A DNA stretch of 64,000 bases from a virus (taxonomy: Duplodnaviria > Caudoviricetes), in IMG/VR virus record IMGVR_UViG_3300028804_000001, positions 32,001 through 96,000 of that record, one strand, 5' to 3'. Below the pieces are notes generated by a model. The model was not told where the DNA came from. It worked only from the letters and a program-made list of their open reading frames with translations, and made no database searches. Shown here in pieces: positions 42,445-48,356 of this stretch (the first letter of the stretch is position 1; each line of letters starts with the position of its first letter). The position numbers were made by a program, and so were the translations under genes.

Positions 42445-42892
42445 AATTAAATTTTACTCTGGTATTTAGTTCTTCAGTAATAACCAAATCACCGATGTGT
42501 ACAAACCAATCCATAGCATTTCCACCAGTGCTGGATAAGGCTTCTATCCAGAAATTTGGTGTTCCTTTATGTTTAGCCCATTCTACCCAGGGATAAACAT
42601 CTAACTTTTCTGTAGGAAAGATAAATTGAACTTCGGTCTTATTAACTATAGAACCATCTTTCCATTTTTGTTCTGGATCTGGATCTGAAGTAAACCACAC
42701 TACGTTAGGTTCAACTATATGATATGGATTAAGGCAGGAATCTGTAGCTAGAAGGATTCCTTTTTCGTTTATGCTATTTAAATGAAATAATGAAGTGAAA
42801 TGATAAAGATACTCTGGCTTTCTATAATTAAGAGTCTGCTCAATCGTCTTCGGGATAATCAGGTTCGTCATCACCATAATTCTCCATTGCAT
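42425..42892 (-). CDS. possible ADP-ribosyltransferase-fold protein
   Basis: LYHFTS..HL..I...GI and VWFTSDP resemble ART-fold strands 1 and 2. Confidence 0.45.
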   Translation of the reverse strand: MQWRIMVMTNLIIPKTIEQTLNYRKPEYLYHFTSLFHLNSINEKGILLATDSCLNPYHIVEPNVVWFTSDPDPEQKWKDGSIVNKTEVQFIFPTEKLDVYPWVEWAKHKGTPNFWIEALSSTGGNAMDWFVHIGDLVITEELNTRVKFNYEKDKS

Positions 42893-43124
42893 CTTCTTCT
42901 ATTTTAGTAATAGTCTTATCATCTAACTGATCTGTGATATCTTTACCAGCTTCATCAGTAATTGAATCTATTTCAATATGTGCCGGCTCATCTGGTTCAA
43001 TAGGAGGTCCCCATCTTCCATCACGAGCTCCTCTATAATAAGGATAGAAAGTATAATCTACGGTTACTTCCTGTTCTGCTTCTCCAACTTCTACAGTTGT
43101 TTTAAAGCTTCCAGTCTTTGCCAT
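42840..43124 (-). CDS. acidic hypothetical phage protein
   Basis: GARD...PIEPDEP motif; GAGG RBS. Confidence 0.6.
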   Translation of the reverse strand: MAKTGSFKTTVEVGEAEQEVTVDYTFYPYYRGARDGRWGPPIEPDEPAHIEIDSITDEAGKDITDQLDDKTITKIEEDAMENYGDDEPDYPEDD

Positions 43125-43155
43125 ATTATACCTCTAATTAATAATTATAGTAATG

Positions 43156-43237
43156 TGTTCCGGGCGAGACTTGAACTCGCACAGCTTGCGCCGAGGGATT
43201 TTAAGTCCCTTGTGTCTACCGATTCCACCACCGGAAC
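43156..43237 (-). tRNA. tRNA-Leu(TAA)
   Basis: GTTCCGG/CCGGAAC acceptor, AGGGA-CTTAAAA-TCCCT anticodon arm, long variable arm, GAGTTCAAGTCTC T-arm. Confidence 0.93.
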
Positions 43238-43243
43238 TTAATG

Positions 43244-43317
43244 TGTCTCGAGAAGGATTCGAACCTTCGACCCTTTGCTTAGAAGGCAAATGCTCTATCC
43301 AACTGAGCTATCGAGAC
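43244..43317 (-). tRNA. tRNA-Arg(TCT)
   Basis: GTCTCGA/TCGAGAC acceptor, TTTGC-CTTCTAA-GCAAA anticodon arm, GGTTCGAATCC T-arm. Confidence 0.93.
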
Positions 43318-43325
43318 AATGACTA

Positions 43326-43706
43326 CTATTCTAAAATGATATTAACTTTCTCAGATACCTGAGAAATAATATCTCTTCTTAACTTCTTAAGAGTCTTTTC
43401 ATCATATGAGATATATTGTGATGTTCTATTAAAGCTACTGAGTAAACTTTCAATAGCTCTATCTAATGATAATCCACGGCCTTTTGGCCGGTAGTTCATA
43501 TCATCTGGACTACATTCTGAAGTCCCAAGCCAGATTAAATCTTGTTCATTCATATTCTGAATGGAACATACAATAGTTGAGATGGTAAGCTCTTTGATAA
43601 GAGTATGCTTTCTACCGTGTCTTTTAAGAATAACGGTTTTAATTTCTTCGATCTTTGTATCATATCTCCACCATACTCTATACTGTTTATTTTCAATTGT
43701 GAACAT
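43326..43706 (-). CDS. hypothetical phage protein
   Basis: CSPDD...GR..SL.RA motif; GGAG RBS. Confidence 0.6.
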   Translation of the reverse strand: MFTIENKQYRVWWRYDTKIEEIKTVILKRHGRKHTLIKELTISTIVCSIQNMNEQDLIWLGTSECSPDDMNYRPKGRGLSLDRAIESLLSSFNRTSQYISYDEKTLKKLRRDIISQVSEKVNIILE

Positions 43707-43951
43707 GTTGAACTCCGGTTATTATTTATGTATTATGAAGATCCCCAGCTCAGGAGCAAGGTGGCCGCGTTACCACTTATACAATACTCCCGAACCAGTT
43801 GCAACTTAACGGCTGCCAATCGTAAGGTTTCCTGGATAATCAGCTAAAGGACTCACAAATCCAATAGCCCTGATACCTTCAAACGGATCTTAACTAACTT
43901 AGCTTGTCGCCAGTTAAGAGGATATCTACGTTACTATACGTAGATAACATG

Positions 43952-44030
43952 TGCCTCAGTAAGGAGTTGAACCTTACAGTGAGTGGCTTGCAATTCCACT
44001 CTGCCACTTTACCCTTTCAGTCATGAGGCC
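43952..44030 (-). tRNA. atypical tRNA-like element (Cys GCA or Ala TGC), possibly a pseudo-tRNA
   Basis: GCCTCA/TGAGGC acceptor, GTAAGG-TTCAACT-CCTTAC T-arm, GAGTGG-AATTGCAAG-CCACTC arm with a 9-nt loop. Confidence 0.5.
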
Positions 44031-44045
44031 AATGAAAACATTTTG

Positions 44046-44514
44046 CTCCCCCGCCTGGGCTCGAACCAGGGACCTAGTGAGAGATTATTTTCTTCTTAAA
44101 GTTAAACTTACCGATACATACTCTAGAACAGAAATTGTAAGGCCTTTTGAGTTTAAATGGTCTAACTCTAAATTCCTTTTTACAATATGCGCATTTTGCA
44201 TTTGCAGTAGAAATCTCTTTGTGTTCCTTATTATGCAAATCTATTTGCTTTAACTCTAAGTTATCAATTCTATTATCGGTTTTGTCATGGTTCTTATGAT
44301 GTATAACTTCCAAATTCTTTTTCGGAAGTTTTCTACCATTTTGCCACCATACTAGATGGTGTTGATAGCAATAACGCTCTCTATATTTCTTACCAGGATA
44401 ATCAGTTGGAGCTACTACTAGTATATAAGGCCCATTCTTCATGAATCTTATATTAACAGAGTTGCACTAGCAAGTCAACAACAATATATGCTCTACCGAC
44501 TGAGCTACAGGGGA
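44046..44514 (-). tRNA. Asn-like tRNA split by an HNH gene (5' half 44489-44514, 3' half 44046-44080)
   Basis: 5' TCCCCTGTAGCTCAGTCGGTAGAGC and 3' TCACTAGGTCCCTGGTTCGAGCCCAGGCGGGGGAG form matching acceptor stems. Confidence 0.75.
44074..44442 (-). mobile_element. HNH homing endonuclease inserted in a tRNA
   Basis: YQHHLVW...IHHKNHDKTDNRIDNLEL (HNH_3 type) plus C-terminal CAYC...FCSRVC. Confidence 0.85.
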
Positions 44515-44528
44515 TTATAGAGTTGATA

Positions 44529-45394
44529 TTATACTGCTACAGGTTTACTGTCTAGTTTAATAATATCGTAGATTCTATCAAAAGCTTTACTCCATACATT
44601 GGGCATATTTTTAAACCGGGTAATAACTTCCCGTTCTATTTCAAATGACCAATGATCTCCTTTAGCTTTATAGTTATCTGGGTCTTTTTTACTTCTTTTA
44701 ATTATTCTACATTTGGTATTTGTTAATACCCAATAGCCAGCGTGCCGCTTTTTATTGTAGAATTCATATCTAACTAGAGATTTAGGATATTCTTTCTCGA
44801 TAAATTTCTTAATATCGGAAAACCATCCTTTGATTAGAATCTTTCCTTCTGGATAATACACGAAAGCTAATGCATATGGAGATGTTAATCTACCGTATTC
44901 ATCATACTCTTTCTTGTAATTAAGATTCTTAATTATCATCTGTTTCATTTTTTACCTCTTGGGTTATGGCATTAAACATTTAAAGTTGCCACGATTTTTT
45001 ACGGCTCATTAAACTTTTATAGGTGAACCGATTTGCGCTATTTCGTGCTCTTCCATTTGTTAATTGCTTCTGCTGCCTTTACATAATCTATCTCCTTTGA
45101 TGTCTTCAAATCTAGTTTTCTTAGTAAATCAAAGAACTTACGACACTTCTTTGATAAGTGAGAATTACAAAAGTAATAATAGTCACCTATCATAATAGAA
45201 TATACCAAATCATAATTTCTGATTTGTAATCCATCTTTCCTCGTTATTACAAAGCGAAGTACAGATTCCATTGTAGTAACAACGAAATAACCATTTTCAT
45301 CTTTTACCCAGTTATCAGGAGTAAAAGATTTAATTAGCTCTTTGTTAAACTCCTCTACCTGAAGAGTAGCCTGTTCTATTAATTTATTATCCAT
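44529..45394 (-). CDS. two hypothetical genes (44529-44948; 45038-~45394)
   Basis: ORFs; the second start is trimmed to MDNKL to avoid the tRNA and hairpin. Confidence 0.55.
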
Positions 45395-45466
45395 AACAAT
45401 AATATGATGGATGTCCCCCCTCATCTTTTGGGAGAATCGGGGGGGACCCATGCTGCTTGGTAGCTT

Positions 45467-45540
45467 TGGGCCCACCTGGACTTGAACCAGGGACCAAGAG
45501 ATTATGAGTCTCCTGCTCTAACCAACTGAGCTATAGGCCC
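45467..45540 (-). tRNA. tRNA with CAT anticodon, probably Ile2 (lysidine) type
   Basis: GGGCCTATAGCTCAGTTGGTTAGAGCAGGAGACTCATAATCTCTTGGTCCCTGGTTCAAGTCCAGGTGGGCCCA; lacks the initiator C1:A72 mismatch and the three G-C anticodon pairs. Confidence 0.88.
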
Positions 45541-45587
45541 TTTCAATCACTGAAAAAGGTAAGTCTTAACCCATCAATCTAATTTTT

Positions 45588-45944
45588 CTATGTAAAAGTG
45601 ATATGACCTAATCTTTCTAGTTCTTCTACAGCGTCTTTTGCGTCCTTAAGACCGACTCCTATAACAGCTCTAAAACTTTTGATTTGGTCTATCTTACCAC
45701 CTGAAAAAGAAACTTTCTCAAAGTCTTCTTTTGAATATTGTGCAAGTATAGGATTATCTGCAAAAGGGTACTCGGCTCCTGAAGGATTTTGATTGAGTAT
45801 CATTTTAGCTAAAGCGACCGCTTCTTTATTATCTGGGTGTAATAATAGAACAAGTTCGGCAGCTCCATTAAGCCGGGTTAATTTATGCTCCAGATCATCC
45901 ATTGACTCTTTAACAACTGTTTTCAATTTATCCTTGAGACTCAT
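45588..45944 (-). CDS. protein with a ribosomal L7/L12 C-terminal-like domain
   Basis: KIDQIKSFRAVIGVGLKDAKDAVE. Confidence 0.7.
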   Translation of the reverse strand: MSLKDKLKTVVKESMDDLEHKLTRLNGAAELVLLLHPDNKEAVALAKMILNQNPSGAEYPFADNPILAQYSKEDFEKVSFSGGKIDQIKSFRAVIGVGLKDAKDAVEELERLGHITFT

Positions 45945-48356
45945 TGAATTCCTCTTTTACTTTATTGCGGTTATGAATTGTATCAAAACAAGTTTTGCAA
46001 ACTGGTCCTCGCATTTCATCCTTAGGAAACTTCTTGTTGCATTTTACACATGAGCCTCTTGGAATATACACAGTTTTCTTCTTCTTTCTAAAGATTCGAC
46101 TAATATGTTCTTTGTTATAGCCTTTACTAGTCATCTTGTTCCTCTACAACATTACTGGGAAACTTTAAAATGCTAAATGGTTTTATCTGATCAAAATCCA
46201 TTTGTAGTCTTAAGGATGCATATATCAAATGCTGCTGGTCCCATTTATAAGGATCCCATTGTGCAATTCCAGTAAGTAAATCTATTAGAAATGTTAATCT
46301 TTTATTTCCAATAGTGTCGTATATAGCTTTAAAGAAGCTGTTATTAATTACTGTATTTATGTCCTGTATATCAGTTATATCTATAGATAGACCAATAACT
46401 GGATTTAAGAATTGGGTGTCTTGAACTAGTACTGAGAAGGGAACAAGTTTAATTACGCTTGATACACCGCTTTCTGGAAGGATTTCAAGAAGCTTTTCTT
46501 TTAAACTCATTGGATCTTATATCTCCTATTGCAGGAAGTGCGGGTTCAGTATGATAACGATAAGCTCTAATAAGTTTATTTAGAACTCTATTTGATTGTT
46601 CTATATATTTCCTGTCATTGGGAGAATACTCAGATATGTCATATACTAGATTCTGAGTCCAATGCTCTTTTATATTTTTAATCTGCTTCTGTAAATAGAG
46701 AACATAGAGCCTTCTTCTTCTAGATCTTCTGATCCCTTCGTCAAGATATGATTTATTAGTTCTTGGCATTCTTGTGCACTCTCATTTGATATTGTTACCG
46801 GAACTACTTCTAATAAGCCACTATTAGTTTTTAAAGTAACTGTTCCTTTTATTACAGGTATCTTGCTTAACTGACTGTTAAGCTTACCATCTTGCAGTCT
46901 GTTTTTAATACTCATAACAGTCTTCTAACTCTATCTACTTTTTCTAGTAATACCAGAAATAGAATAACAAACACAATTGTTAATAGATAGAATAGAAATA
47001 GAATAAAGATTCCGATTGTTATTATGGTATCCTGAAATATCTGCATTTAATCTTCTGTAATATCTCGAACGTTAATTCCTCGAGGGAATCCCTTTTTAAT
47101 TGTAGCTAACTTCACTCTTCCTCTTTTCCGGAAAGTAATGTCTCTTCTGGATTCCATAAGAGCCATACCGGATCCAGTTTCAGAGAAGCCTTTAGCTTTC
47201 ATATTAGATCTGATAAGTTGATCTATAATAGGGTGATGTCCTGTGTATGAACATTCAATTTCCATTTTGCTGCTCCTTTTTTATATTCCTTTTAATCTCT
47301 TCAATTCGTGTTTCCGCTTGAAGCATTATAGATAAGCGGGTCTGGACCTGTGCAATCTTTGGATCTTCTGAGTAACCAGGCTTTCCATCTGAAAGCTTAT
47401 TAAGAATAAGATACATATCTTCAGTTGTGAGTAGATTCGGTGCCATCTTCTTCCTCTCTTACTGGAGATATATAAGTATCACAGTCCTTACAGATTACTG
47501 CCATGCGAGCATGTGCTGCATCTGTACCCCACAGTGCTACATGAGTATCTTGATGTTTACACTCAGATCTTAAGAAATCAAGTTGACCCTGACATTCTTC
47601 AATCTTACGATATACTGCGTTAACTCTCTGACGGATGCTCATTTTTCTCTCCGGAATATGGGACTTCTCTTAATGTTAGTTTATTATCTAATAACCATTT
47701 ATCCAGTTCTGGATCGCTTACCCAGGTATTATCGAATTCTGGATCGTGCACATCAATTACTTTTTGAGTAGATATTTCTACTCGTTCAAATCTAATACCT
47801 AGAATAGCAGCTAGTGTAATTGGTATTGGACCACTAAATACACCTGCGTTATTTATTGTTACATACCAGTCTCTGCTACAGTGATAACACCATATATGAG
47901 ATTCATATTCCGACCATGTTATTTTATGATTATGTTCTAATGGGCATGCCATTCCATAACTAGATGGTTTCATTATCCAATGATGGGTTCTTAAAACTTT
48001 AGGAGCCTCTAATAATAACTTAAGATTGTCAGGAATCTTAAATTCTAGTGGAAGCTGATTATCCATTAGCGTTTGTCCATATGTTTAACACATACAGTTC
48101 CATCAGGAATGTATGGATAATAATGACTCAGTGTTGCTGCATATGTGTTGCATTTCCAGCAGCGGATAATAGTAGATTTATCTTTTACTTTAGATTTCTT
48201 TACCCGCTTCCAGGAATCTGTTCCTACTCTAACGAAACAGGTATCCTCATCAGTTCCATAATCAGCGGCTAAATGAATCCCACCGCCAATAAATCCAGAG
48301 TTTCCTTTTAAAGTTCCGCGGAACTTCTTTTCTTTCTTAACTCTTTTAATTGGCAT
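45928..48356 (-). CDS. run of nine small hypothetical genes
   Basis: Overlapping ORFs 45928-46134, 46127-46510, 46485-46769, 46670-46915, 47047-47265, 47255-47446, 47421-47642, 47620-48066, 48066-48356; several carry CxxC. Confidence 0.55.

Follow-up and report, generated by a model that had tools for sequence, protein, structure and literature searches.

On the minus strand of the DNA considered here, the two parts of a tRNA-Asn gene stand on either side of a gene for an HNH protein. The stretch that was analysed, called the window in the following, comprises 64,000 nucleotides and corresponds to bases 32001-96000 of the 225.6-kb record (38.8% G+C) of an uncultured giant phage in IMG/VR. The locus raises the question of whether the insert is an intron that can be taken out again to give a functional tRNA, or a mobile gene that has put the tRNA out of use, and, in the latter case, whether the remaining parts have a role of their own. 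The initial annotation had left the choice between a homing endonuclease that destroyed the tRNA but keeps its halves as an expression scaffold and a novel protein-spliced tRNA intron.

Anatomy of the interrupted gene

The locus belongs to a small tRNA cluster, in which ARAGORN finds tRNA-Met, tRNA-Arg and tRNA-Leu as neighbours, while across the whole phage record the program makes no call of tRNA-Asn. The 5' half (44514..44489, minus) covers positions 1-26 of the tRNA, that is, the 7-nt acceptor 5' strand, U8 and A9, the D arm, which is perfect with its 4-bp stem, and A26. Its first 25 nt match exactly those of four intact tRNA-Asn(GTT) genes in viral contigs. The 3' half (44080..44046, minus, continued by CA to 44044) covers positions 39-73, and direct reading gives the anticodon-stem 3' strand, the variable loop, the T arm, the acceptor 3' strand and the discriminator G73. 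This exact 3' pattern is absent from the viral contigs. Compensatory changes in the T stem are all that sets it apart from the intact tRNA-Asn at locus L005, with which it agrees fully in the 3' strand of the anticodon stem, the variable loop, the T loop, the acceptor strand and the discriminator. The acceptor strands of the two halves pair at 7 of 7 positions, and U1-A72 together with G73 fits asparagine identity. In intron mode, ARAGORN recognises the acceptor, D and T arms. The earlier description of both halves as intact, with pairing acceptor strands, thus holds.

Between the halves lies an insert of 408 nt (44488..44081, minus), which consists of a 46-nt non-coding leader (44443..44488) and the HNH gene (44074..44442, minus; 122 amino acids). 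The last 7 nt of the ORF coincide with tRNA positions 39-45, and its stop codon TAG (44076..44074), correctly placed inside the 3' half from the start, occupies positions 43-45. The tRNA had been described as split in the anticodon arm by an insert of about 410 nt. The size is right, but the gene is not merely split: positions 27-38, comprising the anticodon-stem 5' strand and the anticodon loop, are missing from their place. An assembly artefact can be ruled out, since more than 20 assemblies of this phage, made independently from metagenomes, agree on the junctions; the only variation among these at the locus is a G57-to-A change in the T loop (44062), present in 4 of 10 strains. The genome holds a single copy of the HNH family.

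It is important to point out what this gap means for the tRNA. Removal of the insert would join A26 to position 39, which does not make a tRNA; with 12 nt of the anticodon arm gone, excision cannot restore one. Consequently, no mature tRNA-Asn is possible from this locus and the phage must rely on the tRNA-Asn of its host. A functional tRNA-Asn is called here neither by default ARAGORN nor by the Rfam tRNA model. When forced in intron mode, ARAGORN proposes a tRNA-Ser(TGA) with a 384-nt intron; this candidate was rejected, as its anticodon stem is mismatched, its "anticodon" is drawn from unrelated leader and ORF sequence, and the halves carry asparagine identity.

The position of the insert would suit an intron, since to our knowledge all known bacterial tRNA group I introns lie in the anticodon-arm region. 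The content of the insert does not. With Rfam cmscan, no group I or group II intron family was found in 42500-46500 on either strand at E <= 10, while the three neighbouring tRNAs were detected, and the ORF, consisting of an HNH domain and a zinc ribbon, contains no reverse-transcriptase domain as expected for group II. The 46 nt of non-coding RNA are, as had been argued from the sequence, too few for a ribozyme core. The hairpins drawn in the leader are at chance level (z = -0.92; 30 of 200 shuffles fold equally well). A CTAGTG in the leader (44470..44465) is indeed complementary to the CACTAG with which the 3' half begins, which would favour an intron, but no equivalent pairing exists in other split loci such as L036. 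The CTGTTAA (44459..44453) that had been read as an Asn anticodon loop is likewise present, but it stands 30 nt from A26 and without stem partners.

Directly upstream of the 5' half, a consensus scan finds a promoter-like site (44526..44554, minus; TAGACA, 17-nt spacer, TAATAT). This would have been the former promoter of the tRNA gene and would now permit read-through into the cassette. On its upstream side the element is bordered by the end of a 139-aa ORF (44948..44529, minus), whose protein has no relatives in the viral contigs. No outer tRNA flanking the element is called by ARAGORN when introns of up to 600 nt are allowed. An 8-nt echo of the tRNA 5' end (CCTGTAGC, 44543..44536) lies in the end of this ORF, and a CAACTCT motif occurs directly before the 5' half and again before the HNH ATG. 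Neither repeat was reported by the repeat finder, and by a rough estimate they are marginally beyond chance; they may be relics of an older tRNA/cassette copy or of an outer tRNA, or may be due to chance.

A number of further observations were made in the neighbourhood. Starting 14 nt after the 3' half there is a tRNA-like gene (43952-44029, minus) that ARAGORN reads as tRNA-Cys(GCA) only if 2 nt are removed. It has a 9-nt anticodon loop on a stem of 5-6 bp and, against a threshold of 29 bits, scores 19.7 bits with the Rfam tRNA model. The tRNA may have degenerated, or its anticodon loop may have been expanded. It is followed by about 240 nt (43710-43950, minus) without any ORF longer than 37 amino acids, with stretches of higher G+C and with no Rfam match at E <= 10. 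Around 43320-43950, the 126-aa ORF of the window is replaced in other assemblies of this phage (L012-L021) by genes for a DCD (dCTP deaminase-like) protein and a PDDEXK_5 nuclease or, alternatively, by a tRNA-Leu(TAG) together with an APS-kinase-like gene, without any difference in the HNH locus itself. The region downstream of the cassette is thus a recombination hotspot beside a nuclease gene. On the other side, a 145-aa ORF (45038-45475, minus) with a weak LAGLIDADG_1 match (E 0.029) starts inside the 3' end of the tRNA-Met (45467-45540) and may be the remnant of a second endonuclease at a tRNA. Some strains (L012-L016) carry a 172-aa HTH-type gene on the opposite strand near the tRNA-Met region, where ARAGORN calls no tRNA-Met. 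Finally, outside the window (G000:C1:108816-108888), there is a tRNA of the amber-suppressor type with anticodon CTA, which ARAGORN labels Pyl.

The HNH protein, its family and the cassette leader

The 122-aa ORF matches Pfam HNH_3 with an E-value of 5.6e-9. The protein is composed of an I-HmuI-like HNH domain (residues 1-77) and a C-terminal four-cysteine zinc ribbon. In 45 relatives aligned over the full length, P12, P16, G17, Y20, R21, H28, W33, H48, H49, N57, N61, H70 and H74 are invariant, as are the zinc-ribbon cysteines C84, C87 and C105, and C109 is conserved in at least 90%. An AlphaFold2 model of the protein has a pLDDT of 92. In an exhaustive VIA-align comparison the best structural match to residues 1-77 is I-HmuI (1u3e; Z 5.7, rmsd 2.9 over 67 residues), while residues 80-122 match small zinc ribbons such as YacG (Z 3.9). 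A Foldseek search against the PDB returned nothing below E 1e-3, and a sequence profile searched against the PDB matched zinc fingers only. From the domain match, the conserved residues and the fold we infer that the protein is a homing-type HNH endonuclease of the HNH_3/I-HmuI group, which would act as a nuclease and support homing.

The relatives of this protein are associated with one tRNA. Profile-guided searches gave at least 160 loci, with viral contigs and metagenomes contributing 80 each, and the 80 non-redundant ones with enough flank were kept; a search of the viral contigs with the single HNH sequence returned distant, uninformative loci only. An intact tRNA-Asn(GTT) is found immediately 3' of the HNH gene at 42 of the 80 loci and immediately 5' of it at 14, and asparagine accounts for 42 of the 52 immediate 3' tRNAs and for 14 of the 34 immediate 5' ones. 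The HNH ORF usually ends inside the 3' tRNA-Asn, the commonest offset of -9 placing the stop codon on U8 A9 G10. Cassettes occur 5' of, 3' of or inside tRNA-Asn genes, and these states are scattered on the HNH tree. At E <= 1e-8 none of 50,697 GenBank phage records contains a member of the family, and among about 185,000 prokaryote genomes a single one does; we found no publication describing it. It is thus apparently a large, phage-only and undescribed family, and the flanking genes suggest that it appears dedicated to a single target, the tRNA-Asn gene.

We now turn to the leader, which bears directly on the nature of the insert. It contains a candidate sigma-70-like promoter (44450..44478, minus) with TTGACT, a 17-nt spacer and a TG-extended TAATAT, which was located by a consensus scan and whose end is 7 nt away from the ATG. 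A Shine-Dalgarno sequence is lacking in front of the HNH gene, and an mRNA from this promoter would be leaderless or nearly so. Promoter-like hexamers are common in this AT-rich region (19 found against 10.5 expected). A properly spaced -35/-10 pair is present in 6 of the 80 related leaders against 0.04 in shuffles.

The leader also resembles tRNA-Asn itself, namely positions 18-26 joined to positions 32-38 (GCTAGTGC ... TGTTAA) without the stem strand 27-31. TGTTAA occurs within 60 nt upstream of the ATG at 28 of the 80 non-redundant loci, compared with 2.1 in shuffles, mostly at a distance of 15-16 nt, and the D-stem-like TAG[AT]G[CT] followed by TGTTAA 2-8 nt later is found at 9 of them, compared with 0.04. 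The closest HNH relatives share the leader of the window, and all of them have TGTTAA unchanged and equally far from the ATG: L033 (59% identity) stands free after a tRNA-His, L034 (54-56%) directly follows an intact tRNA-Asn, and L036 (57%) lies in another split tRNA. The 46 nt thus align with the leaders of relatives that include free-standing ones, and the conserved CTGTTAA forms part of the cassette leader also in copies outside any tRNA; it is not the displaced anticodon loop of the interrupted gene. To judge from these alignments, the non-coding segment is the cassette's own conserved leader with its putative promoter and no part of the tRNA gene. Its likeness to the tRNA would go back to an earlier target, whose left flank the cassette took with it and now probably uses as a promoter. 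It is also a candidate for an operator that imitates the target, and may in this way be autoregulatory.

Insertion, decay or an RNA device

The explanation that best accounts for these results is that a phage tRNA-Asn(GTT) gene was disrupted by a free-standing HNH homing-endonuclease cassette that targets, and presumably homes into, tRNA-Asn genes. We assign this reading a probability of about 80%. The enzyme would recognise the conserved sequence of the tRNA-Asn gene around the D stem and the anticodon arm, and would nick or cut the cassette-free tRNA-Asn genes of co-infecting relatives near the D stem and the anticodon stem. The break would then be repaired from the cassette-bearing genome, with the flanking tRNA sequence serving as homology arms, and the cassette would be copied between the tRNA parts. 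The carrier genome would be immune, its own site being interrupted. A substitute 5' part or a whole substitute tRNA would keep a phage supplied with tRNA-Asn; with the bare copy of the window, the target tRNA would simply be dead. The first of the two options of the initial annotation is therefore upheld as far as the homing-type HNH gene and the destroyed tRNA are concerned.

Presence/absence polymorphism is the usual sign of recent homing. It is not seen in this phage, because all 20 or more contigs that encode the HNH protein or its 139-aa neighbour are interrupted and no cassette-free allele was found among them. The proposed comparison with an uninterrupted allele could be made with the intact tRNA-Asn genes of other viral contigs, but this phage's own locus offered only interrupted copies. 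Both halves are undecayed, unlike what is expected of a long-dead pseudogene. A recent insertion would account for this, as would selection for homology arms, but so would some use at the RNA level.

A split tRNA-Asn of the same layout is found in four further lineages (L036/L037, L041/L139/L140, L168 and L073). Their acceptor sequences differ, but the strands are complementary within each lineage, and all have U1-A72 and G73. In three of the four the 5' junction falls directly after the D arm (position 25/26), and in L073 slightly earlier. The 3' part, which starts at position 39 in the window, starts at positions 32-34 in L065, L073 and L036, and the piece missing in every split locus is the anticodon-stem 5' strand. 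L065 is nested, with the order 5' half of a first tRNA-Asn, leader, HNH gene, a complete second tRNA-Asn and the 3' part of the first from position 32 onwards; L041 has the same layout with the second tRNA degenerate.

Most relatives avoid the loss of the tRNA: overlapping the ORF end, they have either a whole tRNA-Asn as a substitute or a substitute 5' part. The subclade of the window (the window, L033, L034 and L119) has the bare cassette without such a part. In L078 and L063 an orphan 5' half stands upstream of the cassette, and it is with this half that the 3' acceptor strand of the downstream tRNA-Asn forms perfect Watson-Crick pairs, whereas pairing with the 5' strand of its own gene requires G-U pairs. 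The downstream gene thus appears to be a hybrid, with a 5' part that came with the cassette and a 3' part that was resident. L188 and L180 show the mirror image, in that the intact tRNA precedes the HNH gene and the orphan half, here a 3' half, follows it. Many loci have kept only an orphan 5' half, and in L172 the HNH gene is flanked on either side by an intact tRNA-Asn. L036 contains a decayed second 5' part inside the ORF end. On the HNH tree the split state occurs in five rows and needs five changes, at least three of which are forced by well-supported branches, in a quick IQ-TREE maximum-likelihood tree of 117 columns with many unresolved forks. The five changes mean that the split state arose, or was resolved, repeatedly.

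Taken together, the family presents graded solutions to the cost of insertion, from a killed gene, through a substitute 5' half that gives a hybrid tRNA, to a complete substitute tRNA. Default tRNA finders miss or mislabel such genes, and orphan tRNA halves in phage genomes become readable as homing scars. If the enzymes do cut tRNA-Asn genes, they would shape the exchange of tRNA clusters between co-infecting phages.

A separate case is L110 (1232-1975), where a more distant 187-aa HNH ORF with about 146 nt of upstream non-coding RNA lies between the halves of a different tRNA. The acceptor strands of these halves pair at 7 of 7 positions, and the discriminator is A, followed by CCA. There is room for a ribozyme core in this insert, and it may be a true intron.

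Among the alternatives, the one that survives best, which we regard as possible but distinctly less probable than insertion, is that the split is a product of decay. An ancestral arrangement of tRNA-Asn, HNH gene and tRNA-Asn, or of 5' half, HNH gene and whole tRNA, would have lost its inner tRNA parts by deletion, and the junctions would be uninformative about the cleavage site. Arrangements of this kind do exist, namely the two intact genes of L172 and the duplicated 5' or 3' halves of L078, L063, L188 and L180, and the decayed second 5' part of L036 points in the same direction. In the window, however, the length of the ORF is normal for its subclade and no remnant of a second 5' part is visible in the 3' end of the ORF. 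It is important to note that decay would alter the history of the locus but not its nature, and that it is compatible with disruption by a homing cassette.

Another option considered was that the halves are kept for work at the RNA level. Read-through transcripts would pair into a tRNA-like top consisting of the acceptor stem, D arm and T arm, on which RNase P and the 3' trimming enzymes would act to give a stabilised HNH message with tRNA ends; in a related form, the insert would be built for excision by the tRNA-trimming enzymes. The undecayed halves, the 7/7 acceptor pairing here and in the four other lineages, and the promoter-like site directly upstream of the 5' half all speak for such a role, and for phage T4 it has been proposed that tRNA maturation cuts the neighbouring segB message (PMC2330249). 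On the other hand, a transcript started from the cassette's own conserved, predicted promoter would not include the 5' half, since this promoter is situated downstream of it. In addition, a matching pair of halves is absent from the closest relatives L033, L034 and L119, and close relatives would be expressed without any tRNA halves. At many loci a single orphan half, either 5' or 3', is all that has been kept, and around the element of the window ARAGORN in intron mode finds no outer tRNA for excision. We therefore consider a role of the halves in RNA improbable, and the suggestion that they serve as an expression scaffold is not supported. Slightly less probable still is the more specific proposal that the paired halves are an adapted RNA device, in which RNase P and 3' trimming would cut the tRNA-like top and release a tRNA-capped, stabilised message, and in whose nested relatives the whole insert would be excised from the outer tRNA. 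If true, this would be a removal or maturation of a mobile element in bacteria that depends on protein enzymes, without a ribozyme.

Finally, a true intron, whether self-splicing or assisted by a protein, whose removal would give a functional tRNA-Asn, is very improbable, since no continuous anticodon arm can be rebuilt without positions 27-38, no intron model (Intron_gpI or group II) matches and the only non-coding segment is homologous to the leaders of free-standing cassettes, with which the protein-spliced intron of the initial annotation also falls.

Comparison with known systems

Free-standing homing endonucleases in phage tRNA clusters are already known, from T4 SegB and the F-Tfl enzymes of T5. 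What is new here is a large, phage-only HNH family that is apparently dedicated to tRNA-Asn and has close relatives in no cultured GenBank phage.

SegB is a free-standing GIY-YIG homing endonuclease in the T4 tRNA gene cluster, and its main cut lies in the tRNA-Asn gene of T2L (PMC2330249). The two systems thus have in common a phage homing endonuclease gene among tRNA genes, a site in tRNA-Asn, and an ORF end tied to the processing of a neighbouring tRNA (PMC2330249). They differ in that SegB is of the GIY-YIG and not of the HNH type and that segB stands between intact tRNA genes without interrupting any. Furthermore, activity and homing of SegB have been demonstrated experimentally, while for the element of the window they are inferred.

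We know of no report that the T5 F-Tfl endonucleases split a tRNA gene. They have no close sequence relation to the protein of the window, which no GenBank phage matches at E <= 1e-8. According to work of 2004, as cited in two later papers, they are similar to it in being HNH-type, free-standing and located in a phage tRNA cluster (PMC2330249, PMC5714182).

The HNH nicking homing endonuclease I-HmuI of Bacillus phage SPO1, which gave the best fold match to residues 1-77 (1u3e), belongs to the same Pfam group, HNH_3/zf-His_Me_endon, as the protein of the window (PMC5714182). I-HmuI is, however, encoded in a self-splicing group I intron and has NUMOD/helix-turn-helix modules, whereas the gene of the window is free-standing and its product ends in a zinc ribbon. 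The group I introns in the anticodon loops of bacterial and phage tRNA genes occupy the same region of the gene, and some have an HNH ORF between the tRNA halves. They need a ribozyme core and leave their exons complete, while in the window there is no core and 12 nt of exon are missing. Closer in its organisation is the HNH-split nrdA, where a free-standing, intronless HNH gene lies inside a host gene and divides it in two. The pieces of nrdA still assemble into a working enzyme, whereas the tRNA of the window cannot work without its anticodon arm.

As regards the nesting of one tRNA in another, which is also seen in L065 and L041, the nearest parallel in the literature is provided by Lak megaphages with their "enigmatic" tRNA introns (PMC6784885). 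These inserts in phage tRNAs are described there as not classifiable as group I or group II, and one of them may encode a tRNA (PMC6784885). They differ from the present element in being short, in leaving a predicted anticodon arm and, as described there, in having no HNH gene (PMC6784885).

The last comparison concerns a distantly related HNH gene of Kuravirus coliphages, with about 30% identity. In the cultured Kuravirus Escherichia phage O18-011 (NC_070985: 50775-51257; our locus L198) the ORF ends 10 nt inside the downstream tRNA. This tRNA is an intact tRNA-Arg, and the gene is annotated only as "HNH endonuclease". The layout in which the ORF runs into the tRNA is, judging by the loci compared here, the commonest one in the family of the window.
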